This document shows positions 29,687 through 54,720 of a stretch of 64,000 bases of DNA, piece after piece (the stretch's first letter is position 1; every line of letters begins with the position of its first letter). The notes beneath the pieces are model-generated. The model ran no database searches, was not told where the DNA came from, and saw nothing but the letters and a program-made list of their open reading frames with translations. This stretch comes from an uncultured Anaerolineaceae bacterium (GTDB lineage Bacteria > Chloroflexota > Anaerolineae > Anaerolineales > E44-bin32): contig CAZGRL010000001.1 of NCBI GenBank assembly GCA_964528155.1, positions 1,523 to 65,522 of the forward strand. The letters are read 5' to 3'. A program made the translations under genes and the position numbers.

Positions 29687-29688
29687 GA

Positions 29689-30270
29689 TTACTCTTCCAT
29701 CGATTGGTTCACGGCCGAGACGATTTCGTCGACCGATGTATAAGGCCCGATCTTCACATGCTTCAAGCGGCCATCGCGACCGACAATGTACGTTTCCGGG
29801 ACGCCCTGCATGCGGAAGGCCTGGGAGATGCGCGTCCCCAGGTCCGGCCCGTTGGCGTAAGTGATGCCAAAGCGATCGAGGTAAGCCAGAGCCTCCGGTT
29901 CGGTATCGACGTAGTCTACACCCAGGAAGACGACATCCTGATCCTTGAGTTGCTGGTGCGCCATCTCGAGCTCCACGGCCTCCTGTTCGCACGGGACGCA
30001 CCACGAGGCCCAGAAGTTAATCACGACGACCTTGCCGCGCAGATCGGCCGTTCTTACGGTGGAGCCATCGAATGTCGTCAGTGTGAACTCGGGAGCTCGC
30101 GCCCCAACGCCGATGTGCCCCTGTTGGGTGCGAATCAGACCCAGCCCGATCACGGCCAGTAAACCGAACACCAAAGCCCAGACAAGGATCGGGCCCCAGC
30201 GTCTGGACCTGGGGACCGTTACGTCTTCAAGCGCGCTCTCGTCCGTCATGATTCGTTCCCTGGCCGCCAT
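29689..30270 (-). CDS. ccmG: Thiol:disulfide oxidoreductase CcmG/ResA/TlpA family
   Basis: A TM anchor plus a thioredoxin fold with VVINFWASWCVPCEQE. The start is ATG 30270 or ATG 30249. Confidence 0.88.
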   Translation of the reverse strand: MAARERIMTDESALEDVTVPRSRRWGPILVWALVFGLLAVIGLGLIRTQQGHIGVGARAPEFTLTTFDGSTVRTADLRGKVVVINFWASWCVPCEQEAVELEMAHQQLKDQDVVFLGVDYVDTEPEALAYLDRFGITYANGPDLGTRISQAFRMQGVPETYIVGRDGRLKHVKIGPYTSVDEIVSAVNQSMEE

Positions 30271-30301
30271 GCACGATCTTTCTAGAATCGGCTGGCGGTC
30301 C

Positions 30302-30787
30302 TCAAGACCTTCGACGCAATTCTTCTTCCAGCCGGGCGACGTATGGATCGTCGCTCGACTCACTCCCGGCCGGATGCGGAACTTCGACCGGCTTGCCCCA
30401 ACTGCGAAAGGCGCGAAACAGGATGTACGCCCCGGCCAGGAATGCGGCCGGCGGCAGGACATACACCAGCCAGTTCAGCCCTCGCGCCGGAGGCGTGGCC
30501 AGCACGCGGGCGCCGTACTGTTCAACGAAGTAGTCCTTGATCTGACTCTCGGACCAGCCGGCTGCCAGCTTGTCGCGGATGGTAGCCCGCCACTGGGCGC
30601 AAGCTTCCGTCGGGCACACGTCCAGAGGGACGTTCTCGCACACCGGGCAGTAAAGCTGGTGGGCGATCGCGTTCACCTCGTCATCCGACGGCGGTGCCGG
30701 CGGCTGGGCCGGGGCCGAGGCCATCAACAGCAATCCGAGCACGGCCGCCCCGACGATCACCAACCACTTCGACGATCCGTGCATCAA
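30302..30787 (-). CDS. ccmH: Cytochrome c-type biogenesis protein CcmH/NrfF
   Basis: A signal peptide, the motif LYCPVCENVPLDVCPTEAC, WSESQIKDYFVEQYG and a C-terminal TM helix. Confidence 0.88.
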   Translation of the reverse strand: MMHGSSKWLVIVGAAVLGLLLMASAPAQPPAPPSDDEVNAIAHQLYCPVCENVPLDVCPTEACAQWRATIRDKLAAGWSESQIKDYFVEQYGARVLATPPARGLNWLVYVLPPAAFLAGAYILFRAFRSWGKPVEVPHPAGSESSDDPYVARLEEELRRRS

Positions 30788-30796
30788 CTGATGTCC

Positions 30797-32851
30797 TCAG
30801 ATCCTGGCTACGACCGCGCGTGAGGCGGCCGTCCGTCGGGTTCTTTCGTACTCACGCGTAGGCCAGGCGGCAAGCAACGTCGCCGCGATGAAGATCAGCC
30901 CGCCCATCCACACAAAGTTGACTTCGGGGTTGTGGTAGACCTTGAACGTGGCCCCTTGCTGAGCGATCGGCTCCCATCCTACCAACAAGACATAGAAATC
31001 ATCCTGAAGCGTCGAGCGGACGCCGGGGATGGTCATGGGTTGCTGGGAGGCGTAGTAGTAGTCACGCCGCGGATGCAAATCACCGACATACTTGCCATCG
31101 CGATAGACCTGGACCACTGCCCGGGCCACGTTGCGACCATCGTTCGTGTCGAACTGGGTCAGCGATTGGTAGGTCATCGTATAGCGCCCGAGAGTCAACG
31201 ACTCGCCGCGCGCCAGCGTTCCCTGCGTTTCCGTCTGGAACATCTCGATGCCGATGATGCCGATCGCCATCAATACAACCCCCAGGTGGATGATGTAGCC
31301 CCCGTAGCGGCGGCGGTTTCGAACCGCCATACGCCACAATGCGAGCGGGAAGCTCTCCGCGTGACGCCTGTGCCGGGCCAGTGCTCCGCGCCAGAACTCC
31401 ACCAGCGTCACGATGATCACAAAGCCGATCAGCCAGTAACCGATGAGCGCGCCGACGAAGGTGACACCGTTGAGGTACAGGACGACCGGTACAACCAGGG
31501 ACAGGACGACAAGCTTCCACAGGTTGCGGCCAAGGCTCCTGCCTGAGCTCGCGCCGTAGGCCGACAGGGGAGCCACGCCCATCAACAATAAAAGCCCGAT
31601 CCACAGGGGGCCGGTGGCTCGCTCATAGAAGGGCGGCCCCACGGTGACTTTCTGGCCGGTGAAGAGCTCCGAGATCAGCGGGAAGATCACCCCCCAGAAA
31701 CAAACGATCAAGATGCCCATGAAGAGCAGGTTGTTGAGCAGGAAGAGCGATTCGCGGGCGAAGACCGAGTCCAGATGATTGTCGCCTTTCAACTCCCCCC
31801 AGCGACTGAGCAACAAGGAAACCGACACCACAAACGTCAATCCGATGAAGCCGAAGAACATCGGGCCTATCGCCGACTGGGCGAAGGCATGAACCGAAGA
31901 CAACACGCCGGAACGGGTCAGGAAGGTCCCGAAGATCACCAGTGCGTAGGTGAGAATGATCAGGAGCATGTTCCAATGCTTCAGCATGCCCCGTTTCTCC
32001 TGGATCATGACCGAGTGCAAGAAAGCGGTCCCGGCCAGCCAGGGCATGAAGGCGGCAATCTCAACCGGGTCCCATCCCCAGTAGCCACCCCATCCCAGCA
32101 CGTCGTAGGCCCAGCGACCGCCAAGGATCAAGCCCAGTGAGAGAAACAGCCAGGCGACAAGCGTCCAGCGGCGGGTGATCCGGATCCAGCGATCATCCGT
32201 CCGATGGGTGACGAGTGCGGCGATGGCGAACGCGTACGGGATCACGAACGAAACGAAACCGAGGTAAAGCATCGGGGGATGGATGACCATGCCCGGATGG
32301 CGCAATAGCGGGTTGAGGCCCTGCCCGTCCATGGGGACGAGGGGGATTGTGCCTCTGGGTTGGAATAGCGCGGCAACTTGCTGGCCATCAAGCGTCTGCC
32401 ACAGTCGTTGGAAGGGGTTTTCAAAGAAGAGCACAAGACTGATAAAGAACGCCAGCGTGACCATTGTGACCACGATCACCCAGGGGAGGAACTCTCGGTC
32501 TCGGTCCCACCGACGCAGGCTGGCGGCAGTCGCAAAGGCCGACATGAGCCACGACCAGAACACGAGTGAGCCTGCCTGGCCGCCCCACAGCGCCGTGACC
32601 TTGAGGTAGGTCGGCATCGCGTCGCTCGTCACGGAGGCCACGTACTTGATCTCGTAGTGACCGCCGACCAGCAGAGCGATGATGGAGAGCGCAGCCAATG
32701 TCACCAATGGCCAGGTCAAGAGCATGGCGTGACGGGCACTCTCGACCAGGGCGGGCTTCCACTTGACGGCGCCGTATGCCGCAGCACCCGCGCCATAGAG
32801 CGCGGCAATGAACGTCAGTACCAGTGAGAAATACCCCAGGTTAGCGAGCAT
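30797..32851 (-). CDS. ccmF: Cytochrome c heme lyase CcmF
   Basis: 684 aa polytopic protein with the W-rich motif WGGYWGWDPVE and conserved His-containing loops. Confidence 0.93.
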   Translation of the reverse strand: MLANLGYFSLVLTFIAALYGAGAAAYGAVKWKPALVESARHAMLLTWPLVTLAALSIIALLVGGHYEIKYVASVTSDAMPTYLKVTALWGGQAGSLVFWSWLMSAFATAASLRRWDRDREFLPWVIVVTMVTLAFFISLVLFFENPFQRLWQTLDGQQVAALFQPRGTIPLVPMDGQGLNPLLRHPGMVIHPPMLYLGFVSFVIPYAFAIAALVTHRTDDRWIRITRRWTLVAWLFLSLGLILGGRWAYDVLGWGGYWGWDPVEIAAFMPWLAGTAFLHSVMIQEKRGMLKHWNMLLIILTYALVIFGTFLTRSGVLSSVHAFAQSAIGPMFFGFIGLTFVVSVSLLLSRWGELKGDNHLDSVFARESLFLLNNLLFMGILIVCFWGVIFPLISELFTGQKVTVGPPFYERATGPLWIGLLLLMGVAPLSAYGASSGRSLGRNLWKLVVLSLVVPVVLYLNGVTFVGALIGYWLIGFVIIVTLVEFWRGALARHRRHAESFPLALWRMAVRNRRRYGGYIIHLGVVLMAIGIIGIEMFQTETQGTLARGESLTLGRYTMTYQSLTQFDTNDGRNVARAVVQVYRDGKYVGDLHPRRDYYYASQQPMTIPGVRSTLQDDFYVLLVGWEPIAQQGATFKVYHNPEVNFVWMGGLIFIAATLLAAWPTREYERTRRTAASRAVVARI

Positions 32852-32888
32852 TCAAGCCGTCTCCTCGTAATGTAACTACCTCAAAGAC

Positions 32889-32934
32889 GACGGACGAGGG
32901 ACGATCGACTCCCGTCTGTCGTCCCTCGTCCGTC
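32889..32934. repeat. Perfect 16-bp-stem hairpin with GACGGACG core (GACGGACGAGGGACGA-N14-TCGTCCCTCGTCCGTC)
   Basis: Read directly. It lies in the ccmE-ccmF spacer and shares the GACGACGGACG core with the element at 25099-25182. Confidence 0.8.
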
Positions 32935-32959
32935 GCCGATCCATCTTTCCCCGGTTACC

Positions 32960-33481
32960 TTAGCCTTGTTGAACCTGAGCCGGGACTTCCTCCTCGTATC
33001 GCGTCGGACACTTGAGCAGGAGTTCGTCGGCTTGGAAGACACCATCCGATCCCATTTGTCCGGTGACGATGGCCTGGGCCTCGTCACGCAAGAGATCCGG
33101 TTTGGGGCCGACGTAGACGACCTGAAGCCGCGTGGCCGTCGGATCGTTCACCGCTTTGTGCAGCACTTCCGCCAGGCCGCCCTCCCGATCGATCTCATTC
33201 ATGTCAGCCGGTACGTTGGCGATGGTGAACCTGAGAGTGAGCGTCTGGGCGTCGTATTCGATCGTGCTCCCATCCACCGCGCCCGAAATCTTGACATCTC
33301 GCCCGGCGACTGCATCCCCCTTGGTCATCAACTCGTCGATGGTCAGATAGTACTGAGCAGCGGCCTGAGTGGATGACGCGATGAGATACACGATCGCGGC
33401 CACGATGAGCAGCGCACCGATGATGAACTTGGTACGACTGGCTGATTTCGGCTCGGCCCTCAAGACTGTTCTTTCCGCCAT
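32960..33481 (-). CDS. ccmE: Heme chaperone CcmE, Cys-variant (CxxxY instead of HxxxY)
   Basis: A TM anchor plus an OB-fold region (VKISGAV...LTLRFTI...VVYVGPKPDLLRDEAQAIVTG). The C-terminal motif is LLLKCPTRY where canonical CcmE has HxxxY. ATG 33481 has GGAGG 8 nt upstream. Confidence 0.88.
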   Translation of the reverse strand: MAERTVLRAEPKSASRTKFIIGALLIVAAIVYLIASSTQAAAQYYLTIDELMTKGDAVAGRDVKISGAVDGSTIEYDAQTLTLRFTIANVPADMNEIDREGGLAEVLHKAVNDPTATRLQVVYVGPKPDLLRDEAQAIVTGQMGSDGVFQADELLLKCPTRYEEEVPAQVQQG

Positions 33482-33751
33482 TGCTCTCCCTCCGGGCCTC
33501 GCCTCAAGACGCCCTGGACCCGACAAACTGAACCGATTCTATCATTATTCCGAAGTTCGCCCTGTCGGATGAAAGTCACTTTTGCGGCCGACAACTGACG
33601 GGCTCATCCTGTGACGTGGCACACTCCGACGCCCATTGACGGCAACACCCCTTTGGATCTTTCTCGGCCTGCATTAACACTCGATGAAACCCCGGCTATG
33701 ATATCCTGAGAAGAATGAAGTGCAGCTCGCCTTCTCGGGTCTTGCGCCGGC

Positions 33752-34465
33752 GTGATCCCCAAACGAATTGATCGATATCAGATCATCGATGAGATTGCCC
33801 GAGGCGGGATGGCCACCGTCCTGCACGCCCGCGACCCGCGCTTCAAGCGCCATGTCGCCTTGAAGCTCTTGCCCCGGCCGTTCGTCGGCGATGCACAGTT
33901 CAGAGCTCGTTTCCAACGAGAGGCCCGGATGATCGCCTCCCTCGAACATGAAGCCATCGCGCCGGTTTACGACTCGGGCGAGCAAGATGGCCAACCCTAT
34001 CTGGTGATGCGGTTCATGGCTGGCGGCTCGCTTGCCGAGCGGATAGCCCGTGGGCCTATGGAAGGAAGTAGGCGGAGTCTTTGCTGAACCTGCAGGCTGG
34101 GGCCCGGGGTCAACTGCGACGTGGCCGGATACCTGACTGCCGGTCAGGCCATCCTGGCCCGCGGACGCAACGCCAGCGGCACGTGGTGGTGGATCGGATT
34201 TCCCACCGGCGACCGATCCTGCTGGGTCTCCGGCCTCTTGGTCGGCTTCAGCGGGGGCGGCGGGGGGCTCCCGGTGCTCACTCCGGGCCCAAGTTCCACC
34301 CCGGGGCCTACGGCAACCCCGGTACCACCACCTGGCGAACCCCGGCCGCCGGCCAAAACGCCCACCACCTGGGGTGACAAAGATCATCAAGACCTTCCCG
34401 CCCGAACCGGACAGCACCCCTCGCTGACCCTTACCCTGGCTCTGTGCGGGCATGGTCTGTTATGA
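33752..34465 (+). pseudogene. Ser/Thr protein kinase remnant: N-lobe, in-frame TGA, then SH3b-like C-terminal piece
   Basis: The sequence YQIIDEIARGGMATVLHARD...VALKLL...FQREARMIASLEHEAIAPVYD...YLVMRFMAGGSL is a Hanks kinase N-lobe. No HRD, DFG or APE motif follows. A stop lies at 34085-34087. The same frame then reads VNCDVAGYLTAGQAILARGRNASGTWWWIGF..GDRSCWVSGLLV (SH3b-like) and a Pro/Thr-rich tail. Confidence 0.7.
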
Positions 34466-34867: not shown

Positions 34868-36037
34868 ATGACGGCGCGAACCCGCCTCGGTCGGATTTCC
34901 CTGGGCATTGGCGCGGCGCTCACGCTCGCCGCCGTCGTGATAGGGCTTCGCGCCGGGGGGGCTTTGGCGGCTGGTGGGCGTGGGGCCAGGCCATCCGGGG
35001 CCCAGCCGATCCCTCCAGCCTCGGGCTCGGCTCAGGGCATCAGCAACGAATCCTGCTTCGCCTGCCACAGCACCCCTGGGCTCACCATGGATCTGCCTTC
35101 CGGGGAGCAGTTGTATCTGACTGTCGACCGCGATACGTACAACAACTCCGTCCATGGCCAGCTCGGCTACGCCTGCGTCCAGTGCCACACCGACATCACC
35201 GGATATCCCCATCCAAAGGTGGCGGCACAGACCCTACGCGAGTTCACCCTGGAGAAATACACCGCCTGCGCCGTATGCCATCAGGACAAATATCAGCAGA
35301 CGCTGGATAGCGTTCATCAGAAGGCATTGGCGGCCGGGAACATCAACGCCGCAGTGTGCACCGACTGCCATGGAGCTCACGACGTCCAGCCACCCGACCA
35401 ACCCCGCACCCGCATCCCCCAGACCTGTCAGAAATGTCACTCCCAGATCTATGACCTTTACAAGGACAGCGTTCACGGTGCGGCGCTTATCGGCGAAGGA
35501 AATCCGGACGTCCCGACTTGCATCGATTGCCATGGAGTTCACAACATCGAAGGTCCGTCGAACAGCCCCTTCCGGCTGTTCTCCCCCCAGATCTGCGCCC
35601 GCTGCCACGCCAACAAACAGTTGATGGACAAGTACGGTATAAGCACAGACGTCTTCAACACGTATGTCTCTGACTTCCACGGTACGACTGTCGTGATCTT
35701 CGAAGCCATCACTCCCGATCAACAGACCAACAAGCCCGTGTGCATCGACTGTCATGGCGTGCACGATATCCTCGCACCGAATAACCCCAACAGCACGGTG
35801 ATGAAGGCCAACCTTCTCAAAACGTGCCAGAAGTGTCATCCGGACGCGACCACGAATTTCCCCACAGCCTGGCTGAGCCACTATCGGCCCAGCCCGCAGC
35901 ATTATGCCCTGGTCTACTACGTCCAATTGTTCTATCGGATTCTGATCCCGACCGTCATTGGAGGCATGCTGGTCTTCGTCGTCGCTGATGGGGTCCGTCG
36001 GATAATGATCAAGCGGAAGGGGCGCAGCGATGAGTGA
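34868..36037 (+). CDS. Nine-heme c-type cytochrome with C-terminal membrane anchor (CbcL periplasmic-domain-like)
   Basis: Signal/TM at the N-terminus and nine CxxCH motifs counted (CFACH, CVQCH, CAVCH, CTDCH, CQKCH, CIDCH, CARCH, CIDCH, CQKCH). C-terminal TM helix ILIPTVIGGMLVFVVADGV. The GAGGTGG Shine-Dalgarno lies upstream. Confidence 0.88.
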   Translation: MTARTRLGRISLGIGAALTLAAVVIGLRAGGALAAGGRGARPSGAQPIPPASGSAQGISNESCFACHSTPGLTMDLPSGEQLYLTVDRDTYNNSVHGQLGYACVQCHTDITGYPHPKVAAQTLREFTLEKYTACAVCHQDKYQQTLDSVHQKALAAGNINAAVCTDCHGAHDVQPPDQPRTRIPQTCQKCHSQIYDLYKDSVHGAALIGEGNPDVPTCIDCHGVHNIEGPSNSPFRLFSPQICARCHANKQLMDKYGISTDVFNTYVSDFHGTTVVIFEAITPDQQTNKPVCIDCHGVHDILAPNNPNSTVMKANLLKTCQKCHPDATTNFPTAWLSHYRPSPQHYALVYYVQLFYRILIPTVIGGMLVFVVADGVRRIMIKRKGRSDE

Positions 36038-37190
36038 ATCCCGCAAGTACCTCCGCTTCCCGGTCTCCTATCGAATCGAGCACTGGATCCTGGTTACCGC
36101 TTTCACCACCCTGGCGATCACCGGGCTGGTGCAGAAGTTCCCAATGGCGGGTATCTCGGATGCGATCCTGCGCCTGCTCGGTGGGATCGATACGACGCGG
36201 GTGATCCACCATAGAGCGGCGGTCGTCCTGATGCTGGAAGCCGTGTATCACATCGGTGCCGTCGGATTCCGCCTTTTCGTCCGCCGGACACGTCTTTCGA
36301 TGCTCCCGACGATGACCGATGTTCGTGTGGCCGTGCAGGCGTTGCTCTTCAATCTGGGTCTCAGCAAAGTCCGTCCACAGCAGGGTCGTTTCAGCTTCGA
36401 AGAGAAGGTCGAGTATTGGGCGGTGGTCTGGGGCACCGTGATCATGGCGCTCACTGGCTTCATGATGTGGAACCCGATCGCCACGACCCGCTTACTCCCA
36501 GGGGAGTTTGTGCCGGCGGCGAAGTCGGCCCACGGGGCGGAAGCGGTGCTGGCCGTCCTGGCCATCATCATCTGGCACATCTACCACGTTCACGTCCGCG
36601 AACTCAACAAGAGCATGTTCACCGGTCGACTGACAGAAGACGAGATGATCGAGGAGCACCCGCTCGAGTTGGCCGATCTCAAGGCCGGTGTGGCAGAGCG
36701 TCCGGTCGAACAGCGCTTGCTTACCCGCCGCAAGCGGATTTTCTATCCGGTCTACGGCCTGCTGGCGGCGGTGATGCTCCTCGGGATCTACGCCTTTGTC
36801 GCGTTGGAGCATACAGCTGTTACCACCCTGCCGCCCGCCGAGAATGTCGTCGTCTACGCTCCGCTCACGCCGACACCTTTCCCGACGGCGCTGCCTTCGG
36901 CCACGGCACAGCCGATCACAGCGGTCACCTGGGATGGCGGGATCGGGGCCATTTTCCAGACCAAGTGCGGGACGTGCCACGGCGGGCCGTCGGGTCTGGG
37001 CGGGCTGGATCTGTCCAGCTACGCCGGCATCAGCGCCGGTGGAGTCGACGGCCCGGCGATCGTGCCTGGCGATGCCGACGCCAGCCTGCTGGTATCGAAG
37101 CAATCCGCCGGCGGTCATCCGGGGCAGCTGACCGGTGAGGAACTGGCCCTGGTCCGGCAGTGGATCGAGGCCGGCGCGCCGGAAAACTAA
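36030..37190 (+). CDS. FdnI/HydC-type diheme cytochrome b fused to a C-terminal PSCyt1-like monoheme c domain
   Basis: The N-terminus YLRFPVSYRIEHWILVTAFTTLAITGLVQKF plus four to five TM helices with conserved His fit the Ni_hydr_CYTB type. The C-terminal ~91 aa read WDGGIGAIFQTKCGTCHGG...IVPGDADASLLV...WIEAGAPEN. The gene overlaps the previous one by 8 nt. Confidence 0.85.
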   Translation: MSESRKYLRFPVSYRIEHWILVTAFTTLAITGLVQKFPMAGISDAILRLLGGIDTTRVIHHRAAVVLMLEAVYHIGAVGFRLFVRRTRLSMLPTMTDVRVAVQALLFNLGLSKVRPQQGRFSFEEKVEYWAVVWGTVIMALTGFMMWNPIATTRLLPGEFVPAAKSAHGAEAVLAVLAIIIWHIYHVHVRELNKSMFTGRLTEDEMIEEHPLELADLKAGVAERPVEQRLLTRRKRIFYPVYGLLAAVMLLGIYAFVALEHTAVTTLPPAENVVVYAPLTPTPFPTALPSATAQPITAVTWDGGIGAIFQTKCGTCHGGPSGLGGLDLSSYAGISAGGVDGPAIVPGDADASLLVSKQSAGGHPGQLTGEELALVRQWIEAGAPEN

Positions 37191-37210
37191 AACTCAGGCT
37201 CAATCGGAGA

Positions 37211-38357
37211 ATGCGCATAGAAACGTTGAGAGGGGCGATCCGGCGCTTCTACTTCCCGCCCGAAGGCTCACCCTTGTGGATCGGGCTGCTCCCGTACGCC
37301 ACGCTCGACGTGCTCAGCCTGGCGGCGCTCGTCTCAGGCGCGTACGCCTGGGATTACACCAATTCGCCTCCTTTCTGTGGCGCCGTTTGCCATACCATGC
37401 CGCCCGAATACACGGCTTGCCTGACCTCGCATCACGCCCGGGTGGATTGCGTCGAGTGCCACATCGGCCGCGGGTTCATCGCCACCCGTGTGACCCGCAA
37501 GGCGGGAGATACCAAGTACATCGTCGCTCTGGCTTTCCACGAGTATGAATTTCCGATTCGGGCGACGGACTTGAGGCCGGCCCGCGAGACGTGTGAGCGT
37601 TGCCACTTCCCGGAGAAATTCTCCGACGATAGCCTGCGTCACATTCAACACTATGCCAATGGTGTGGATAACACGCCGACGACGACTTATCTCGTCCTCA
37701 AGACCGGAGGCGGGTCGAAGCGGCAGGGCCTCGGGCGCGGCATCCACTGGCACATCGAGAACCAGGTTCACTATCTGCCGTTGGATCCCGAAGAGCAGTC
37801 GATCCCCTACGTGCGTGTCATCCAGGACGATGGTTCAGTCTCGGAATACGTCGAGTTGGGTTCAGGCATCGATCCGGCCTCGATCAACCCATCCGACTTG
37901 AAGGAGATGGACTGCATCACGTGTCACAACAGGGTCACCCACCTGATCCTCTCGCCCGAGGACACCGTCGATCAGCTCATCACCGGCAGCGCCATTTCGC
38001 AGGAAATCCCCGAATTACACGAGAAGGCCTGTCGAGGTGTACGGCGCGTCATACAGCTTGACCCAGGAGGCCATGTCAGGCATCGCCGGCCTGACATACG
38101 ATGGTGCCATTGGCTTGCTGTTCCAGAACCGCTGTGCCGCGTGCCATGGCGCGTCAGCAACCATGGGCCTCGACCTGACGTCCTACGCCACGGCCATGGC
38201 CGGAAGCAAGAACGGGCCGGTGATCGTGCCCGGTGATCCTCAGGGAAGCCTTCTTGTCCGGAAACAATCGGGGGACCAGCCCCACTTCGGACAGTTCTCA
38301 GCCAAAGAACTTCAACGAGTCGTCGATTGGATCAAGGCCGGTGCGCCTGAGAAGTAA
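37211..38357 (+). pseudogene. NapC/NirT-like tetraheme quinol dehydrogenase plus C-terminal PSCyt1-like monoheme domain, split by a +1 frame error near 38030
   Basis: An N-terminal TM helix and four CxxCH motifs (CGAVCH, CVECH, CERCH, CITCH). After ...EIPELHEKA the frame turns to nonsense, while skipping T38030 gives VEVYGASYSLTQEAMSGIAGLTYDGAIGLLFQNRCAACHG...WIKAGAPEK (ORF 38037-38357). That second part has no signal peptide of its own. Confidence 0.8.
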
Positions 38358-38446
38358 GGACCGAGCCTGCGGATTGGCGGCGAGAACGCAACAACCCGAA
38401 CTCGAAATGTCACCGGGCGTGACACGCGAAGGGAGGTGCTTCAACA

Positions 38447-38926
38447 ATGGGTGAACCGAACCGAATGGGCCGTCGCCAATTCCTGAGCACGCTGACCTGG
38501 GCGATCGGCGGGGTCATCAGCGCCGGGCTCGGCATCCCTGCCATTGCCTACATCATTGGTCCGGCGCTCCAGGGCACGGGGACCCAGAATTGGATCCGGC
38601 TGGGCTCGACAGCCAAGGTCGAACTCGGAGCCCCCACGCTTTTCAAAGCCCGAATCACCCGCAAGACAGGCTGGATCGAGAACGAGGAAGAACTCTCAGC
38701 CTACGTCAGGACCGACAACGGGCGCGAATTCGTGGCGATGTCCAACATCTGCACCCACCTCGGGTGCCGGGTGCGCTGGGTCAGCGGGCAAGGGGAGTTC
38801 TTCTGCCCCTGCCACAACGGCGTATTCGATAAGGACGGCAACGTCGTGTCCGGCCCTCCGCCGCGACCCCTCGACCGCTATGAAGTTAAGGTCGAGGACG
38901 ACGAACTGTTCATTCTGGGAGGCTGA
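38447..38926 (+). CDS. Rieske [2Fe-2S] subunit of a cytochrome bc-type complex
   Basis: Tat-like RRQFL, and the motifs CTHLGCRVRW and CPCHNGVF. Confidence 0.92.
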   Translation: MGEPNRMGRRQFLSTLTWAIGGVISAGLGIPAIAYIIGPALQGTGTQNWIRLGSTAKVELGAPTLFKARITRKTGWIENEEELSAYVRTDNGREFVAMSNICTHLGCRVRWVSGQGEFFCPCHNGVFDKDGNVVSGPPPRPLDRYEVKVEDDELFILGG

Positions 38927-38928
38927 AC

Positions 38929-39588
38929 ATGGCGGCCAGAGTCGGCGATTGGTTGGACGAACGACTGGGATGGCGGCAGGTCTGGGAAGCGATCTTCCTG
39001 CGCAAGATCCCCAAAGTCAATTGGTTCTACACCCTTGGGAGCGCGGCACTCTTCTTGGCGGTGAATCAGATTGTGACGGGGATTTTGCTCACCATCTACT
39101 ACGTCCCGACCCCCGATCACGCGTATGACAGCGTGCAGTTCATCACCGGGCAGGTCCCGGCCGGCTGGCTAATTCGAGGATTGCACCACTGGGGTGCCAG
39201 CGCCATGGTCGTCATCGTGGGCCTGCACATGTTGCGTGTGATCCTGCAAGGCTCCTACAAGTACCCGCGGGAGGTCACCTGGTTTACCGGTGTTCTTCTC
39301 TTGTTGGCGGTGGTCGGGTTCGGCTTCACCGGATACCTCCTCCCATGGGACCAGAAGGCATTCTGGGCTACGACCGTCGGCACGCGCATCGCCGGGGTGA
39401 CGCCCGTTGTCGGAGAGTGGATCCTGCGCATCATGCGCGGCGGCGAGGAACTCTCAGCGGTCACCCTGGCACGATTCTTCGGCGTACACGTGTGGGTCCT
39501 GCCGGCGGCCTTGCTGAGCCTGGTACTCGTGCACCTCTACCTTGTCATCCGGATCGGGATCAGCGCCCCGCCGAAGAGGGGGGAGTGA
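38929..39588 (+). CDS. Cytochrome b6-like subunit (N-terminal four-helix cytochrome b)
   Basis: 219 aa with NWFYTLGSAALFLAVNQIVTGILL, GLHHWGASAMVV and YLLPWDQKAFWAT, the b6/b N-terminal-domain signatures. It begins 2 nt after the Rieske gene. Confidence 0.9.
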   Translation: MAARVGDWLDERLGWRQVWEAIFLRKIPKVNWFYTLGSAALFLAVNQIVTGILLTIYYVPTPDHAYDSVQFITGQVPAGWLIRGLHHWGASAMVVIVGLHMLRVILQGSYKYPREVTWFTGVLLLLAVVGFGFTGYLLPWDQKAFWATTVGTRIAGVTPVVGEWILRIMRGGEELSAVTLARFFGVHVWVLPAALLSLVLVHLYLVIRIGISAPPKRGE

Positions 39589-39591
39589 CCG

Positions 39592-41694
39592 ATGAACGAA
39601 CAAGAAAAGAAAGAGTACCTGGAGGCCTACCACAAAGCCAAGGAAGCCGGGCCGTCGTTCTTTCCTGACGTCGTCGTCAAAGATGCCGTCGTCGCACTCT
39701 TGGTGTTCCTGGCGCTTGCGGCTCTGGCCTACTTCATCGGCGCCCCGCTCGAAGCCCGGGCCAACCCGGCCGATACATCGTACACCCCTCGACCGGAATG
39801 GTATTTCCTGTTCTTGTTCCAGTTGTTGAAGTACTTCCCGGGGAAGTTGGAGGTTATCGGGGTCATCGTCATCCCGACCGTGGTCCTCGGATTGTTGTTC
39901 TTCTTGCCATTTATCGATCGGACAGCCAAGCGACATCCCATCGGTCGGCCGATTGTCACCGCCGGCGTGACACTGGTCGTGCTCGCCGTCGGGCTGCTGA
40001 CGCTGCAGGCGGTGCGCGAGACGCCTCCGCCGGCCGACACTTCACTCGGTGATCCAACCGCCGCGCTCTACGTCACAAACTGCGCCGGCTGCCACGGCCC
40101 GTCCATCAGCGTGCCGCCCAGCACCAACCTGCACGCCGTCATCGCCCAGGGCAAACACGAAGGCATGCCGGCCTGGAACGCCGATCTCACCAGCGACGAG
40201 ATCGATGCGCTGGCAGGTTTCATCCTCTCCCCCGACGGCAGCCGCCTGTTCACCGAGAACTGTGCCGAATGCCACCAGACCTCTGAACTCGTGGCCAGCG
40301 ATCCACTTGAGCTTAGGTCAGCATTGCAGCAGGGGCCCGACTACCCACCGCACGCCGGTCTGGAAGTGCCGGCCTGGACACAAACACTCAGCCCCGAGGA
40401 GCGCACGGCGCTGCTCAATTTCCTGGTCGCCCCTGACGGGCAGCGCCTGTTCGCCATCAACTGCGCTGCGTGCCACGGACGATCCGTGTCCTTCTCGGGG
40501 GACGAAGCCACCCTGCGCCAGATCATCCAACAGGGCGGGTTGCATCTCGAGATGCCGCCGTGGCGAGAGAGATTGAGCTCGTCGGAGCTCGACATGCTGG
40601 CCAGCTATGTTGTCGACCCGTCCAACACGCCTCAAGGCCAGCAACTGTTCTCCAACTACTGCACCGAATGCCATGGGCAGCGCGTCCCGGCGGAGACTGA
40701 CGTCGAGACGGCCCGCCAGGCAATCGCCAGCGGCGGCGGGCACGAGACGATGCCCGTATGGGGAAACATCCTCACGCCCGAACAAATCGACGCGTTGGTG
40801 AGTTACACACTCGAAGCCGCTCACGGCGCGCCCCTCGAGCTGGGCCAGGATCTCTTTGCCAAGAACTGCTCCGTCTGCCACGGCGATTTCGGCGAAGGCG
40901 GGCCCAACCCAACCCGACCGGACGACATCATCGCCCCAATCAGCTCAGCCGAGTTCCTCGAGACGCGCGATGACGCCACACTGCGAGCGATCATCTCCCA
41001 GGGCCAGCCCAACTTCGGGATGTCACCCTTTGGGAACGCTTACGGAGGCCCGTTGAGCGACGAGGAGGTTGACGCTCTCGTAGCCTTCATCCGATCGTGG
41101 CAAGCAAAGCCTCCGGTGGAACTGCCTCCGGAAATCGTGAGCCGACCGCTATCGATCGAGGGTCCTGACATCTACGCCGAGGTCTGCGCGCAATGCCACG
41201 GCGTTCAAGGCGAAGGCCTGATCGGCCCATCGCTGAGCGATCCTTCGTTCCAATCCGCCAACACGGATGAGCAGATCTACAACACGATCAATGTCGGCCA
41301 CGAGGCCACAGCCATGATCGGCTGGGGAGAGATCCTCAGCGCCGACCAGATCCACCAGCTTGTGGATTACATCCGGAAGCTGGGCGGAGCAGGAGCCGCG
41401 CAAGACGCTGGCGAAGTCTCTTTTAAGAATGACGTGCTCCCCATCCTGGATGAGAAGTGCGGGATCTGTCATGGCAGCCTGGGAGGCTGGGACGCCTCGA
41501 GCCATCAATCGGTGATGGAGAGCGGGGACAATGGGCCAGTCGTGAACCCCGGAGACCCCGAAGCCAGCCTGCTCGCCCAGAAGCTCCTCGGCACTCAGAC
41601 GATTGGAGCAGAGATGCCTCCAGCAGGCCCGCTGCCGCAGGACGAAATCCAGACGATCCTGGATTGGATCAGCGCGGGCGCCTTGGACAACTGA
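39592..41694 (+). CDS. Subunit IV-like (cytochrome b C-terminal) membrane domain fused to seven c-type heme domains
   Basis: The N-terminal ~130 aa contain PEWYFLFLFQLLKYFPG (the PEWY motif of subunit IV). Seven CxxCH motifs follow (CAGCH, CAECH, CAACH, CTECH, CSVCH, CAQCH, CGICH). Six sit in tandem class I-like repeats, and the last sits in a PSCyt1-like module ending WISAGALDN. Confidence 0.88.
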   Translation: MNEQEKKEYLEAYHKAKEAGPSFFPDVVVKDAVVALLVFLALAALAYFIGAPLEARANPADTSYTPRPEWYFLFLFQLLKYFPGKLEVIGVIVIPTVVLGLLFFLPFIDRTAKRHPIGRPIVTAGVTLVVLAVGLLTLQAVRETPPPADTSLGDPTAALYVTNCAGCHGPSISVPPSTNLHAVIAQGKHEGMPAWNADLTSDEIDALAGFILSPDGSRLFTENCAECHQTSELVASDPLELRSALQQGPDYPPHAGLEVPAWTQTLSPEERTALLNFLVAPDGQRLFAINCAACHGRSVSFSGDEATLRQIIQQGGLHLEMPPWRERLSSSELDMLASYVVDPSNTPQGQQLFSNYCTECHGQRVPAETDVETARQAIASGGGHETMPVWGNILTPEQIDALVSYTLEAAHGAPLELGQDLFAKNCSVCHGDFGEGGPNPTRPDDIIAPISSAEFLETRDDATLRAIISQGQPNFGMSPFGNAYGGPLSDEEVDALVAFIRSWQAKPPVELPPEIVSRPLSIEGPDIYAEVCAQCHGVQGEGLIGPSLSDPSFQSANTDEQIYNTINVGHEATAMIGWGEILSADQIHQLVDYIRKLGGAGAAQDAGEVSFKNDVLPILDEKCGICHGSLGGWDASSHQSVMESGDNGPVVNPGDPEASLLAQKLLGTQTIGAEMPPAGPLPQDEIQTILDWISAGALDN

Positions 41695-41857: not shown

Positions 41858-43330
41858 ATGTCGACAGATCGAAGTCGATCCACAATCCCCTGGCTCCGAC
41901 ATAGCCTGCGGGCGCGGGTCGCCATCAGCGTTGCGCTTCCACTGATGCTCGCATTAGCCTCCCTGTCGATTGCCCACTACTTGCGCGGCCGCGACCTGGT
42001 CGAAAGCCAGGTTCGGATGACGGCAGCCCAGCTTGGCCAGATTCTGACAGGAAGCCTGCGTCGGGCGATGCTGGCAAATGACAATCAAATGATCACCGCC
42101 GTCTTAGAGGACGTCGGTAGTATGGAAAACATTGATCGGATCCGTATCGTCGACAGCCAGGGTGTCGTTCGCCTCGACAGCCATTCGACGGACCTCGGTC
42201 GGCAGGAGCTCACCGGCCAGCCGGGGTGCGTCGAGTGCCATGTCTACGATCCTTCTGTCCGACCGCGAGCGGTGCTCCTGACGGGCGCCGCCGGGATCTT
42301 GAGGATCGCCACACCGATCGACAATGAACTGGCCTGCCTGGGCTGTCACTCTGAGTCCCAGAGACACCTGGGTGTCGTCCTGGCCGATGTCCCGGTCCAG
42401 GCGCTCGAACAGAACTTGTTCCACGATCTCGAAATCGATCTGGCGATCTCAGTCGGCATCACGCTGCTGGTGACCATCGGGGTGTATTTGCTCATACACC
42501 GGTCGGTTGTGCGCAGAGTGGAGAGTTTCCTGCCGGCATTGGCGTCATTCGCCCGCGGCGACTTGAGCGCCCGCCTGCCGGAGCGTGGCCGCGAGCACGA
42601 CGAATTGGGGCAACTCGCCGTCGCTTTCAATCAGATGGCCGACGACCTGGAAAGGCATACCCGCGATCAGGCCGCACGAACCAGGCTGCGTCAACGCGCA
42701 ATTGTTGAGGAACGTGAGCGGATTGCCCGCGAACTTCACGACGGCATCGCCCAGCTCCTGGGATTCGTCAACAACAAAGCCATGGCCGTCCGCCTGCTTC
42801 TGAAGAAGAACCAGACCCATGAAGCCGATGATCAGCTCCAACAACTCGAGGAGGCCTCGCACGGTCTTTTCGTCGATGTCAGAGAAGCGATCATCGGCTT
42901 GAGGACCACAGACAAGGCCGGCGTCGGGCTTTCCAGCGCAGTCGAAGACTACACCCACCAATTCAGCCGACTGAGTGGGATCACGGTGGACCTCTCGATC
43001 GGCCCTGGGGTAAGGGATATTGAGCTCAACGCCGAAGTCGAGTTGCAGTTGCTGCGCATCATTCAGGAGGCCCTGACGAACATTCGCAAGCACGCCGCCG
43101 CCAGCCGCGCTTCGGTGAGCCTGCGGAGGAATGACACCAGACTCGAGTTGGCCATCACTGACAACGGCGTGGGCTTCGTGCCGGCCTCTGCGGACTCCGA
43201 CCATCAGCCCCGGTTCGGATTGAGCACCATGCAAGAGCGGGCCGAGTCGATCGGGGCGGCGTTCGAACTGGCTTCCGCGCCGGGGGCAGGCACTCGCGTC
43301 TCCGTCAACGCTCCGCTGGGGAGGAGATAG
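41858..43330 (+). CDS. Sensor histidine kinase (HAMP, HisKA_3, HATPase) with two CxxCH motifs in the extracytoplasmic loop
   Basis: Two TM helices flank a ~170 aa loop containing GCVECH and ACLGCH. HAMP (LAVAFNQMADDL), the H-box ARELHDGIAQLL and the ATPase domain (NGVGF, GLSTMQERA) follow. Confidence 0.9.
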   Translation: MSTDRSRSTIPWLRHSLRARVAISVALPLMLALASLSIAHYLRGRDLVESQVRMTAAQLGQILTGSLRRAMLANDNQMITAVLEDVGSMENIDRIRIVDSQGVVRLDSHSTDLGRQELTGQPGCVECHVYDPSVRPRAVLLTGAAGILRIATPIDNELACLGCHSESQRHLGVVLADVPVQALEQNLFHDLEIDLAISVGITLLVTIGVYLLIHRSVVRRVESFLPALASFARGDLSARLPERGREHDELGQLAVAFNQMADDLERHTRDQAARTRLRQRAIVEERERIARELHDGIAQLLGFVNNKAMAVRLLLKKNQTHEADDQLQQLEEASHGLFVDVREAIIGLRTTDKAGVGLSSAVEDYTHQFSRLSGITVDLSIGPGVRDIELNAEVELQLLRIIQEALTNIRKHAAASRASVSLRRNDTRLELAITDNGVGFVPASADSDHQPRFGLSTMQERAESIGAAFELASAPGAGTRVSVNAPLGRR

Positions 43331-43334: not shown

Positions 43335-43976
43335 ATGCGGGTCCTCGTAGCCGACGATCACTCCCTCTTCCGGGACGGCGTGGTAAGCCTGTTGGAGGCA
43401 GCCGGTTTCGAGGTCGTCGGCCAGGTGGGAGACGGTCTGGCCGCCGTCGAGTCCGCCATTGACCTGAGGCCTGACCTCGTCTTGATGGATATCACTATGC
43501 CCAAACTCAGCGGGCTGGACGCGCTTCGTCGCATGAGGGCGGAAGCTCCCGAGATCCAGGTGGTCATGCTCACCGTCTCGGACGAGGACAGCGATCTGCT
43601 TGCCGCGATCCAGTCCGGTGCCAAGGGCTACATCCACAAGAGCTTGAGTGCCCAGGAGTTCCTCGACCTGATCGGCGGGCTGGAGCGCGGCGAGGCAGCC
43701 TTGAGCCGGAAGACGGCCGCGCGCCTGATCGCCAGGCTTGGAAACAGGCCCGGGCCTGAGGACGACAGACTGCCGCGCCTCACGCGACGCGAGATCGAGC
43801 TACTCAAGCTGGTGGCCGACGGTTTATCTAACAAGGCCATCGCCCAATCGTTGTCCGTGAGCGAGAACACAGTCAAATATCACGTTCGCAACATCCTGCA
43901 AAAGCTCGGAGTTCAAAACCGGACCGAGGCTGTCGCTCATGCGATCCGCGCCGGGCTCCTCGGCCGTCGTGATTGA
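43335..43976 (+). CDS. NarL/FixJ-family response regulator (REC plus LuxR HTH)
   Basis: MRVLVADDHSLFRDG, LVLMDITMP, and LTRREIELLKLVADGLSNKAIAQSLSVSENTVKYHVRNIL. Confidence 0.93.
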   Translation: MRVLVADDHSLFRDGVVSLLEAAGFEVVGQVGDGLAAVESAIDLRPDLVLMDITMPKLSGLDALRRMRAEAPEIQVVMLTVSDEDSDLLAAIQSGAKGYIHKSLSAQEFLDLIGGLERGEAALSRKTAARLIARLGNRPGPEDDRLPRLTRREIELLKLVADGLSNKAIAQSLSVSENTVKYHVRNILQKLGVQNRTEAVAHAIRAGLLGRRD

Positions 43977-44544: not shown

Positions 44545-44650
44545 GACGACGGGCCCTTTGCTCGGCATGGATGGAAGGAGGTTGCCTCCGCGCGGATTCT
44601 TGCTATCCTGTGACGAAGTCCAAACGAGACCATCAGAGGAGAATGGCTCT

Positions 44651-45670
44651 ATGGGAAGAAGACTGATCATACTTGGCTTGGCTCTCGTCGGTGCGGCGCT
44701 TGTCCTATCGGCCTGTGCGGGTGCCGCGGGCCCAGCGGGCCCCGCGGGACCGCAGGGGGCTGTGGGACCTCAGGGTCCGACCGGTCCGGCCGGCGCGCCA
44801 CCGGCCGCCGCCGACCTGACGTGCACCCAGTGCCATAATGACACTACGTTGATCGACGGCAAGGCGACTGCCTGGAGCGAGTCCCTACACGGGACAGGTG
44901 AGGCCTACGTGCGGGGAACAAGCGCGGACTGCGCAGGCTGTCACTCCGGCGGCGCCTTCAGCGCCAGAATCGCCGCGGGTCTCAGCCCGGACAAGGTTGA
45001 AGCCGGCGATCCCAACCCGACGCGTCAGGATTGCCGCACCTGCCACGAGATCCACACGACATACACCTCCGCCGACTGGGCTTTGGAGACCACCGACCCG
45101 GTGGCTCTCTACGCCATCGAGGGCTCGACTTTCGACGGTGGAAAAGGCAATCTGTGCGCCAACTGCCATCAGCCACGCCGCGATTTCCCTGTCGCAGAGA
45201 ACGGCGTGATCAGTGGAATCTCCACACACTGGGGTCCACACCACGGCCCGCAGAGCGCCATGCTGCTCGGGGTAGCCGGCTCCGTTGCGGGCACCCCCAG
45301 CGCGCACTACTCGGTGGTGAAGGATACGTGCGTCGGATGCCACATGGGTGGAGACGCCGCCAATCACACGTTTGAGCCGGACGTTGCGACCTGCCAGACA
45401 TGTCACACCGATGCCACGGACTTCGACATCAACGGCGTGCAGACCGAAGTCCAGGCGATGATCACTGAACTTGGCGACAAGCTGGTTGCCGCGGGCGTGC
45501 TCAGTGAAAACAGCGCGGATGGTCACCCGACCGTAACAGAAGGCCCCGAGGCTGTCGCGACTGCTCTCTATGACTGGCTCTACGTCGCCCATGAAGACAA
45601 GAGCCTGGGCGTCCACAACCCTGCCTATACCAAGGCTTTGCTCCAGGCGGGTTTGGATGCAATGAAGTAA
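44651..45670 (+). CDS. Hexaheme c-type cytochrome lipoprotein with N-terminal collagen-like Gly-X-Y stalk
   Basis: Lipobox LVLSAC is followed by nine Gly-X-Y triplets (GAAGPAGPAGPQGAVGPQGPTGPAGAP). Six CxxCH motifs follow (CTQCH, CAGCH, CRTCH, CANCH, CVGCH, CQTCH). The C-terminal helices contain EDKSLGVHNPAY, reminiscent of NrfA-type multiheme proteins. GAGGAG lies upstream of the ATG. Confidence 0.85.
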   Translation: MGRRLIILGLALVGAALVLSACAGAAGPAGPAGPQGAVGPQGPTGPAGAPPAAADLTCTQCHNDTTLIDGKATAWSESLHGTGEAYVRGTSADCAGCHSGGAFSARIAAGLSPDKVEAGDPNPTRQDCRTCHEIHTTYTSADWALETTDPVALYAIEGSTFDGGKGNLCANCHQPRRDFPVAENGVISGISTHWGPHHGPQSAMLLGVAGSVAGTPSAHYSVVKDTCVGCHMGGDAANHTFEPDVATCQTCHTDATDFDINGVQTEVQAMITELGDKLVAAGVLSENSADGHPTVTEGPEAVATALYDWLYVAHEDKSLGVHNPAYTKALLQAGLDAMK

Positions 45671-45799
45671 TATGGCGTAGACCCGGGTCGGCACGGCGAG
45701 GCTTCGAAAGGGCTCAACGGCGAATAAGATACATCGAACGCGCTTCTGAATTCGCCACGACACGTCGGCCTTGCTTGACCCGGTTCAGAAGATAAGAAG

Positions 45800-45830
45800 A
45801 AGCCGGGCGCCATCTGGCGCCCGGCTTTTC
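45800..45830. terminator. Bidirectional intrinsic terminator (AGCCGGGCGCC-atct-GGCGCCCGGCT)
   Basis: An 11-bp GC stem is followed by TTTTC on the plus strand and by TTCTTCTTATCTTCT on the minus strand. It lies between convergent genes. Confidence 0.8.
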
Positions 45831-45960
45831 ACATGTCACGGCTCGACGCGGGCCGGGAAGGGGCAGACGCCGGAACAAGAAGTCGGGCGGCTTCACCGCC
45901 CGACCACTCGTTCAGACGAAACCTCGATGCGCGAGGACCAGGAGTTGGTCCTGCGCTGTC

Positions 45961-47208
45961 TCAATCGGCTGCCGAAGTCGCCAATTCCGGGACCGGACGA
46001 ATCTCCGGGACTTCCTCGTGATCGACGACATTCAGGTATCGCACCCCCAGCGTGAATGCCATCAAACCATAGGCGATCACACCCGCGCCGGCGAGCGCCT
46101 CGACCAGCGAGGGGAAGTAGTGTGTGTAGCGGGCTACGATCTCCTGCGGCAGATAGGTAAGGACGATCAGTTGTCCGGCCAGGTTCGTGTCCCATCGATA
46201 GGCCACTACTCCGCCGACAATCAGCCCGAGCGCGATCATCCGCACCATGGGCAACCTGCGCAGGCTCGGGCGCAACAGGATGATCATCGGGACGATGATA
46301 CCCAGGATGATCTCACCGACCCAGAAGTTGAAGGAGAGCGGCCCTTGCGTGAGCAGCTGTAATCCCTCAGTACGGCCCGGCAGATAGGTGTAGGTCATCG
46401 AAAGCGCGTCCCAGAACCTGAGGTACAGGTACGCCACAAGGACCCAACCGATGAAGCCCGAGACCTTCTCGAGCAATTCATCCCTGACTTTCACCTGCGC
46501 CGATAGCCGACCAGCAACCATTGAGGCCAGGACGGTCAGTGCCGGTCCACCAGCCATCGCCGACAGGATGAACAGGACGGACAGGTCAGGTCGATACCAT
46601 ATCGGCCTGGCCTTCAGCACGCCGTACGCCGCCCCGAGCGACGACTGGTGAAGGAGGGACAGGCCCAACCCGGCCACCGCCAGATAAGGGGCGTAGTGAT
46701 GAATGCCACTCAATACCTTCGAGACCCGCGGCCATCGGCGCTTGAACCAGGCTGCACCCCCGACGATCGGCGCTGTTTCCAGCGCCAGCACGGTCAGGTA
46801 CAGCGTGACACACATTGTGACTTCCCACAGAACGGAGTGTGGGTTCCAGAAGACCATCGGATGCCAGAATCGATCCGGCCGGCCGATATCGAGAAGCAAG
46901 GTCAGAACCGCCATCGAATACCCGATCAGACCGATGAACGTCGCCGTGCGAGCGACCGGTTGATAGCGCTTGAGATCCAGCAGATATACCGCGGCGCAAA
47001 GCAGGAAAGCGCCGGCGCTCATGGCGATCGATGAAAGATCGATGGTGATCCACAAACCCCAGGGAACCAAATCCGTCAGGTTGGTCACTACCAATCCGCG
47101 AGTGAAGACGACGCCTGCTGCGATTGCACCAAGGAGCATGAACCCGGCCAGCAGCCCGATCCAGATGTGGAAGGCGTTCCGCTTGACCCTAAGGCCGAGA
47201 GCCCTCAT
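45961..47208 (-). CDS. NrfD/PsrC-family polytopic membrane quinol-interacting subunit
   Basis: 415 aa with about ten TM helices. The LVPWGLWITIDLSSIAMSAGAF and DIGRPDRFWH motifs are typical of NrfD-like proteins. The gene overlaps the FeS subunit stop by 4 nt. Confidence 0.88.
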   Translation of the reverse strand: MRALGLRVKRNAFHIWIGLLAGFMLLGAIAAGVVFTRGLVVTNLTDLVPWGLWITIDLSSIAMSAGAFLLCAAVYLLDLKRYQPVARTATFIGLIGYSMAVLTLLLDIGRPDRFWHPMVFWNPHSVLWEVTMCVTLYLTVLALETAPIVGGAAWFKRRWPRVSKVLSGIHHYAPYLAVAGLGLSLLHQSSLGAAYGVLKARPIWYRPDLSVLFILSAMAGGPALTVLASMVAGRLSAQVKVRDELLEKVSGFIGWVLVAYLYLRFWDALSMTYTYLPGRTEGLQLLTQGPLSFNFWVGEIILGIIVPMIILLRPSLRRLPMVRMIALGLIVGGVVAYRWDTNLAGQLIVLTYLPQEIVARYTHYFPSLVEALAGAGVIAYGLMAFTLGVRYLNVVDHEEVPEIRPVPELATSAAD

Positions 47209-48903: not shown

Positions 48904-48929
48904 GCTCTGCATCTCCTCACAACTCGGTC

Positions 48930-53702: not shown

Positions 53703-53818
53703 TCTCCTCCAGTTGCCCTCTCGCTGCTATAGCCAGGCGAGGCCGGGCAGTCCGATTCTACTTTCAAGCTCCAGGCAGGGACAGTGACGTTTCTCCCCGG
53801 CCGACAGCTCCAGCAATC

Positions 53819-53850
53819 GGCGCCGCCGCCTCGTGCGAAGCGGCGGCGCC
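53819..53850. repeat. Intercistronic GC hairpin (GGCGCCGCCGC-N10-GCGGCGGCGCC)
   Basis: A perfect 11-bp stem between the two diheme cytochrome genes. No U-tract follows on the transcribed (minus) strand. Confidence 0.7.
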
Positions 53851-54717: not shown

Positions 54718-54720
54718 GGA

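Follow-up and report, generated by a model that had tools for sequence, protein, structure and literature searches.

A recurrent Anaerolineales gene block that may encode parallel membrane quinol:cytochrome c oxidoreductases with tethered exit haems

Introduction

When several quinol-oxidising modules are encoded side by side, do their products form one enzyme or do they work in parallel? This question is raised by six reading units, here called g1 to g6, at positions 34868-41694 of a 64,000-nucleotide stretch of DNA (the window) from an uncultured Anaerolineaceae bacterium (assembly GCA_964528155.1, contig CAZGRL010000001.1). The block brings together a CbcL-like gene pair (g1 and g2, module A), what is left of an ImcH-like cytochrome gene (g3, module B) and a Rieske/cytochrome b6 trio (g4 to g6, module C). 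A related monohaem domain, the tail, has been added behind a linker to each of the three module types. An earlier note on this DNA, made from the letters of the window, had described three quinol-oxidising modules with a shared tail domain and had proposed that these three entry points feed one acceptor chain.

Anaerolineales are abundant in sediments, digesters and wastewater and are rich in multihaem cytochromes, and the exit of electrons from their quinone pool is uncharacterised. Our analysis suggests, with a probability that we put at roughly 0.55, that the block is a conserved Anaerolineales respiratory island of parallel membrane quinol:cytochrome c oxidoreductases with tethered exit haems and not one novel enzyme. 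The island combines known module types in a widespread variant that is so far undescribed; in the literature on PSCyt1, on Anaerolineae together with ImcH, and on subunit IV/multihaem fusions in Chloroflexi we found no description of the block.

Results

Gene content of the block

Frame analysis placed the six co-directional reading units on the + strand, with an 8-nucleotide overlap followed by gaps of 20, 89, 2 and 3 nucleotides. The coordinates, overlap and gaps given in the earlier note were confirmed, as were its haem counts for g1 (nine CxxCH motifs) and g6 (seven). The module identities that it assigned (FdnI/HydC-type cytochrome b, NapC/NirT, Rieske, b6 and subunit IV) are backed by Pfam, NCBIfam and PDB matches.

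The first gene, g1 (34868-36037), encodes a membrane-anchored nonahaem cytochrome c of 389 amino acids with an N-terminal signal or anchor and a C-terminal transmembrane (TM) helix (TM helices at residues 7-25 and 358-376). It matches the Pfam families Cytochrome_C7, Paired_CXXCH_1 and MtrC/MtrF, and 70 of 80 orthologues keep the nine CxxCH motifs. At its C-terminus (35940-36037) a W..H..P motif precedes the TM helix and is conserved in at least 80% of 81 orthologues. The His of this motif could be a ligand for a b haem of g2, by analogy with a suggestion made for Geobacter CbcA.

The second gene, g2 (36030-37190), encodes an FdnI/HydC-type dihaem cytochrome b of 386 amino acids (PF01292, 56.4 bits) whose best solved relative is FdnI (1kqf_C, E=2.4e-6). 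Its scores against the FdnI/HydC equivalog models fall below their cut-offs (59 bits against 115.85 for TIGR01583). His18, His60, His74, His168 and His183 are invariant among 17 homologues. A fifth TM helix (residues 241-259) is followed by a Pro/Thr-rich linker and then by a monohaem domain of about 90 residues, tail 1 (36915-37187).

Downstream of g3, which is treated separately below, lies the trio. The Rieske iron-sulfur subunit g4 (38447-38926) has an N-terminal TM anchor, matches PF00355 (46 bits) and TM_PetC, and carries the motifs CTHLGC and CPCHN; against NF010001, the b6f iron-sulfur subunit model, it scores 84 bits, below the cut-off. The product of g5 (38929-39588) is a split, b6-type cytochrome b with four TM helices (PF00033, 175 bits) that scores below the cut-offs of both the cytochrome b6 model NF002990 (240 bits) and the ExtP model (217 bits). 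The last gene, g6 (39592-41694), joins a subunit IV (three TM helices; PF00032, 44 bits; Qo motif PEWY) to six class-I cytochrome c domains (Cytochrome_CBB3, six matched stretches, 218 bits) and to tail 3 (41407-41691), which makes it a heptahaem protein. It has 2,855 homologues of about 700 amino acids. With 2Fe-2S boxes, a split cytochrome b that has haem-ligand His residues and a subunit IV bearing a Qo motif, g4-g6 is by its motifs a predicted b6-type Rieske/cytochrome b complex in which subunit IV is fused to a six-domain class-I haem chain.

Conservation and synteny

We scanned 80 loci, taking one genome per species. Nearly all came from Anaerolineales or other Chloroflexota, and the isolate Anaerolinea thermolimosa was among them; its strain IMO-1 (locus L066) has g1-g2 and none of the other genes of the block. 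We found that g1 lies directly upstream of g2 in 80 of 80 loci, and that the two are separate genes in every one of these genomes, overlapping by the 8 nucleotides noted above in the window. A full-length g3 was found within the flanks examined in 40 of the 80, immediately downstream of the pair in 24 and upstream in 7. The trio was nearby in 13 of 80 loci, all 13 of which also contained g3; in three of the 13 the order was permuted to g1-g2-g4-g5-g6-g3. Two further loci carry the ImcH-like gene with the Rieske, b6 and subunit IV genes (and the kinase and regulator genes described below) without g1-g2. From these linkage counts, two units are conserved independently of each other: the g1-g2 pair, and the ImcH-like gene plus the trio. 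The six-gene block as a whole is one recurrent way in which they are combined.

Relatives with 88%, 81% and 66% identity have the block together with a HisKA_3-type kinase and a NarL-type regulator; others have it with the gene order permuted. Thus the check on gene order suggested in the earlier note came out in its favour, and its description of three quinol-dehydrogenase types in one packed block extends to these relatives.

Paralogy and family of the tails

By pairwise BLASTP tail 1 is 52% identical to tail 2, that of g3 (E=3e-31), and 38% identical to tail 3 (E=2e-17). The other class-I cytochrome c domains of the window match the tails over the haem-motif stretch alone (E of at least 1e-4). 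The three C-terminal domains are therefore paralogous, as had been claimed. Their assignment to the PSCyt1 model (PF07635, gathering cut-off 22 bits) stood for tails 1 and 2, at 36.0 and 34.8 bits; tail 3 falls just under the cut-off at 21.6 bits, but many g6 orthologues are flagged PF07635.

Among 13 genomes carrying all three tails, the tails grouped in three orthologous clades according to their host gene. Identity between classes is about 46% for the cytochrome b and ImcH-like tails and 34-36% for either of these against the subunit IV tail, and it is equal within and between genomes. The tail duplications are therefore old and the copies have not been homogenised; gene conversion as the cause of their likeness was rejected on the same grounds. 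What the earlier note had called the same domain on all three modules is thus a set of paralogues in three old clades that also differ in their predicted sixth ligand, His or Met.

To what known cytochromes are the tails related? A profile built from 36 tails and searched against solved structures matched both haem domains of FoxE (5mab, E=2.3e-16), hydrazine synthase at its haem-alphaII domain (5c2v, E=8e-5) and cytochrome c6 (3dmi, E=1.3e-4); PccH, an electrode-uptake cytochrome, was also among the matches. All cytochrome-b and ImcH-type tails have an invariant His in a (G/P)H(P/F)GQ loop, which aligns with the only His outside CxxCH in the aligned haem-alphaII stretch of 5c2v. Haem-alphaII is bis-His, with a type-I fold and a midpoint potential (Em) of about -330 mV (PMC12607021). 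All 13 subunit-IV tails have MPP instead, and their Met resembles the Met ligands of cytochrome c6 and of FoxE, whose distal haem ligands are Met (PMC10654088). From these alignments we infer that the g2- and g3-type tails are bis-His and of low potential and that the g6 tail is His/Met and of higher potential. The two types are probably not redox-equivalent.

We found the domain to be widespread. At a threshold of E<=1e-3 a profile of the three tails matched 34,355 cluster representatives of many architectures. The best 73 matches included 72 with PSCyt1, 14 with Ni_hydr_CYTB, 8 with PSCyt2 and 3 with PSD1. All of the best 120 of 4,287 g2 homologues (E<=1e-5) combine PF01292 with PF07635, and many of these 120 carry one or two further cytochrome domains. 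In the loci examined a g2 homologue may have no tail, one tail, or two or three in tandem (tail-less, two-copy and three-copy forms occur in L009, L018, L059, L062, L068 and L081), and the database proteins that best match the tail profile contain as many as eight copies in a row. The earlier note had taken PSCyt1 on a respiratory subunit to be anomalous and the domain to be normally the N-terminal module of large PSCyt/PSD proteins. Neither view holds: these counts make such a subunit commonplace, the domain is C-terminal here, and since just 8 of 73 matches have PSCyt2 and 3 of 73 have PSD1, that context does not define the family.

Decay of the third gene

The NapC/NirT-like frame of g3 opens with ATG at 37211 and stops at 38236 (frame 2), and the open reading frame that encodes the tail (38037-38357) is in frame 0. 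The remnant (37211-38236) is the N-terminal part of an ImcH-like NapC/NirT-family cytochrome (PF03264, 37.2 bits), with a TM helix at residues 24-42, a CX3CH motif (CGAVCH, residues 56-61) and three CxxCH motifs. The orphaned C-terminal part (38031-38357) contains tail 2 at 38082-38354. The N-terminal part is 80% identical to residues 1-271 of a 565-residue orthologue in locus L001, and the orphaned part is 77% identical to residues 476-565 of the same protein. An orthologue of g3 was also matched by NrfH (2j7a_C, E=1e-6).

DNA alignment with intact orthologues revealed two lesions. A single extra T at 38030 shifts the frame, and a 558-bp in-frame deletion (186 codons) has its junction at 38096/38097. 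In intact relatives this 558-bp stretch is bounded by a CCTGAC direct repeat, the signature of a slippage deletion. The lost segment held three CxxCH motifs and one CX4CH. An intact orthologue has nine haem motifs, namely a CX3CH by the single TM helix, six CX2CH, a CX4CH and the CX2CH of the tail. ImcH homologues have an atypical CX3CH next to a TM helix and five to nine CX2CH motifs (PMC6295460); the g3 orthologues fall within that range, and the window copy, with three CX2CH kept in frame, does not.

We then compared g3 with its homologues, using as query a repaired version of 381 residues (the conceptual product has 382). The orthologues with 88%, 81% and 66% identity each consist of one protein of 564-565 residues, and 119 of the 120 best homologues are uninterrupted at 562-593 residues. 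The sole short one is the source genome's own predicted protein (P0393), which has 341 residues and no tail. Close relatives form a series: g3 is intact in L004, broken here and gone from L091, where g6 is 96% identical and the Rieske gene follows about 180 nucleotides after g2. We read the window g3 as a pseudogene, ancestrally an ImcH-like nonahaem quinol dehydrogenase inactivated by the frameshift and the 186-codon deletion.

A programmed +1 frameshift at 38030 was rejected because 119 of the 120 best homologues show no interruption and because 66 nucleotides separate the site from the deletion junction. Collapse during assembly was judged an unlikely source of the 558-bp deletion, since the repeat on its flanks is just 6-7 bp long and the entire gene is missing from a close relative.

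Several claims of the earlier note fall with g3. In the window its NapC/NirT gene does not run into the tail, and what had appeared to be a tetrahaem protein is the stump of a nonahaem one. Just two membrane subunits of the block here, not three, end in a tail, and of the three proposed entry points the third appears to be a pseudogene.

A sensor kinase and the neighbouring genes

Directly after g6 lie genes for a sensor histidine kinase (41858-43330, +; HAMP, HisKA_3 and HATPase_c by Pfam) and a NarL/LuxR-type response regulator (43335-43976, +), the latter with orthologues at 63-91% identity that contain Response_reg and GerE. In the kinase an extracytoplasmic domain, between TM helices at 21-39 and 195-213, contains two CxxCH motifs (residues 124 and 160). 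Both motifs are kept in the orthologues of L001, L003, L004, L010 and L021, down to 47% identity, and the protein weakly matches the Geobacter-type haem-c sensor domain Mcp40H-20_sensor (23.7 bits). This suggests that the kinase is probably a dihaem redox sensor paired with the NarL-type regulator. A second HisKA_3-type sensor kinase (50468-51967, -) lies between two respiratory clusters of the window.

The window contains a second Rieske/cytochrome b complex (52917-56961, -). It comprises a Rieske protein (56326-56961), two dihaem class-I cytochromes (53881-54717 and 52917-53702) and an unsplit cytochrome b of 528 residues (54721-56310). A search of this cytochrome b with the simple pattern P.W[YF] gave no Qo motif. 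Closer to the block are a multihaem cytochrome (44558-45670, +) and, at 45961-48981 (-), a multihaem cytochrome, a 4Fe-4S protein and an NrfD-type membrane subunit that together resemble an ACIII/Qrc-like quinone-interacting module; the close relative L090 has the same neighbours as those at 44558-48981.

On the other side, System I cytochrome c maturation genes (ccmA, ccmB, a redoxin gene, ccmH, ccmF and ccmE) occupy 25954-33526 (-), and the same genes flank the block in L003 and L092. This region also encodes a 633-residue protein with two class-I haem domains (27378-29282). Just upstream of g1 is a protein-kinase fragment (33752-34087, +; Pkinase model positions 1-91 of 263), after which open reading frames in other frames follow. 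This second gene remnant points to either local gene decay or error-prone assembly.

Discussion

How might such modules work in parallel? Each tail, placed on the outer face behind a flexible linker rich in Pro/Thr or Gly/Ala, would be a tethered electron-exit carrier. Monoderm bacteria replace soluble cytochrome c by cytochromes c that are fused or lipid-anchored, and the tails would be the counterparts of these. The low potential predicted for the bis-His tails of modules A and B would suit multihaem dehydrogenases, and the higher potential predicted for the His/Met tail of module C would suit the high-potential chain of a Q-cycle complex. Since the tails would differ in potential in this way, the modules may be alternative exits from the menaquinol pool at different acceptor potentials, much like ImcH, CbcL and CbcBA in Geobacter. 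There the three serve acceptors of decreasing potential, ImcH being required above -0.1 V and CbcL below (bioRxiv 10.1101/2021.04.15.440034). Expression of the modules may be controlled by the putative dihaem sensor kinase and the NarL-type regulator encoded next to them.

A bolder form of this idea seems to us distinctly unlikely. The ImcH-like protein would be an obligate partner of the b6-type complex and would form with the CbcL-like pair a potential-gated switchboard, in which tethered bis-His and His/Met arms pass electrons between the Q-cycle complex and the non-Q-cycle dehydrogenases. The obligate partnership is suggested because the ImcH-like gene accompanies the trio in 13 of 13 loci and in two more. 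If true, such an arrangement would be undescribed in any respiratory chain.

The modules could instead form one supercomplex or funnel, as the earlier note supposed, the shared tail being a common docking or exit module for a single periplasmic acceptor chain such as the 9-haem or a hexahaem wire. The genes are tightly packed and co-directional, their linkage recurs despite permuted gene order, one tail family is found on all three membrane modules, and the flexible linkers would let the tails reach a common partner. We nevertheless consider a supercomplex unlikely: the tail paralogues are ancient and are predicted to differ in their distal ligand (His or Met), g1-g2 occur without the trio in 67 of 80 genomes, the trio and ImcH-like gene exist without g1-g2, and one module is dispensable, its g3 being an apparent pseudogene here and deleted in L091. 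That g1-g2 are mostly found without the trio would also fit the view that adjacency is meaningless and that independent respiratory operons have piled up beside cytochrome c maturation genes in a cytochrome-rich region. Other respiratory modules crowd the window (a second Rieske/b complex, a multihaem-iron-sulfur-NrfD module and the ccm genes), and 89 nucleotides separate g3 from the Rieske gene. Such an accident is very unlikely in our view, however, as the ImcH-like gene stays with the trio in 13 of 13 and 2 of 2 loci despite rearrangements, the same kinase/regulator pair travels with the block, and the modules have a tail family in common.

Electrons could also run inward. Fe(II), electrodes or a partner cell would then be the electron source for FoxE-like tails and multihaem chains, the CbcL/MtoC-like and ImcH-like modules would reduce the quinone pool, and the Rieske/b complex might run in reverse, which has been proposed for iron oxidisers. 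The best solved relative of the tails is indeed the Fe(II) oxidoreductase FoxE, PccH matches too, and MtoC/MtrH of Fe(II) oxidisers, for which a role in quinone reduction has been proposed, belong to the CbcL family (PMC6295460). But the homology to FoxE is that of a class-I fold subfamily and is uninformative on substrate, neither Cyc2 nor MtoAB nor any other known marker of Fe(II) oxidation lies in the block, and the Qo motif is an ordinary PEWY and not the APWY tied to reverse-running complexes (PMC4122944). We hold electron uptake to be improbable.

Several points weigh against our preferred reading of parallel oxidoreductases. All members of the block are known here from sequence alone, so the haem ligation, the direction of electron flow, the division of labour by potential and the regulation are all predicted. 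The axial ligands of the tails are read from alignments, and an AlphaFold2 model of tail 1, built from a three-sequence alignment, was poor (predicted local distance difference test score, pLDDT, 58). Scans of the block for promoters and terminators gave results at chance level. The monoderm argument draws on general knowledge of Chloroflexota envelopes. The likeness of g1 and g2 to CbcL, of which they would be a two-gene equivalent, and that of g3 to ImcH lie in architecture and shared Pfam families only. Finally, the extra T at 38030 might be an assembly error, in which case a shortened, in-frame pentahaem g3 of 382 residues might be made.

Zhong and Shi recorded no CbcL homologue and one ImcH homologue in their survey of Chloroflexi (PMC6295460). 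The island offers candidates that earlier surveys missed: a split CbcL-like pair, present in each of the 80 species genomes examined, an ImcH-like partner and a heptahaem-tailed Rieske/b complex. If the His and Met tails do set different potentials, one domain has been re-tuned for low- and high-potential exits, and Geobacter-style potential-dependent respiration becomes testable in a monoderm phylum. The intact, broken and absent states of g3 in close relatives are a ready-made natural knockout.

How does the block compare with known systems? CbcL (GSU0274) is an inner-membrane quinol oxidase of Geobacter sulfurreducens that serves low-potential extracellular acceptors, and is defined by nine CX2CH motifs followed by a HydC/FdnI-like dihaem cytochrome b, with six TM helices (PMC6295460). 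The products of g1 and g2 have the same parts in the same order, and six TM helices in total if the g1 anchor is counted with the five of g2. In contrast to the single polypeptide of CbcL, the module is split in two genes, its c-part has its own C-terminal anchor as in CbcA, and its b-part adds a TM helix, a linker and a monohaem tail. In Geobacter CbcBA, too, b and c parts are on different subunits, and a C-terminal TM helix anchors the c subunit (bioRxiv 10.1101/2021.04.15.440034); g1 has in common with CbcA a conserved His near that helix. CbcBA has seven haems, however, against nine in g1, and is regulated by sigma-54/BccR, whereas the block adjoins a HisKA_3/NarL pair; according to the CbcBA authors, CbcB and the b domain of CbcL have no sequence homology.

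Intact g3 resembles ImcH (GSU3259) in its NapC/NirT-like start, the CX3CH beside a TM helix and several CX2CH motifs, and it has one TM helix, as does the ImcH homologue of Anaerolinea thermophila (PMC6295460). It differs in that the orthologues add a CX4CH and a PSCyt1-type tail, for nine motifs in total, and in that the window copy is frameshifted and lacks 186 codons. The tails belong with FoxE (5MAB), haem-alphaII (5C2V) and PccH (4RLR) to the class-I subfamily recognised by Pfam as PSCyt1/PccH, all having an N-terminal helix, CxxCH, GGL.L, PGD..S.L and a C-terminal WI.AGA helix. Those three are soluble or part of an enzyme, whereas the tails are linker-tethered C-terminal modules on membrane quinol dehydrogenases.

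Relative to its single-haem counterpart, g6 has seven haem domains instead of one, the last of the FoxE/PSCyt1 subfamily, and g4-g6 is linked to an ImcH-like gene and a haem-sensor kinase. As in the anammox organism Kuenenia, a Rieske/b core and multihaem c-type partners lie in one cluster, in an organism with several bc complexes. The Kuenenia complexes have HAO-like and NAD(P)-binding subunits, whereas g4-g6 has none, and its own multihaem part consists of class-I domains that form a chain and are fused to subunit IV.

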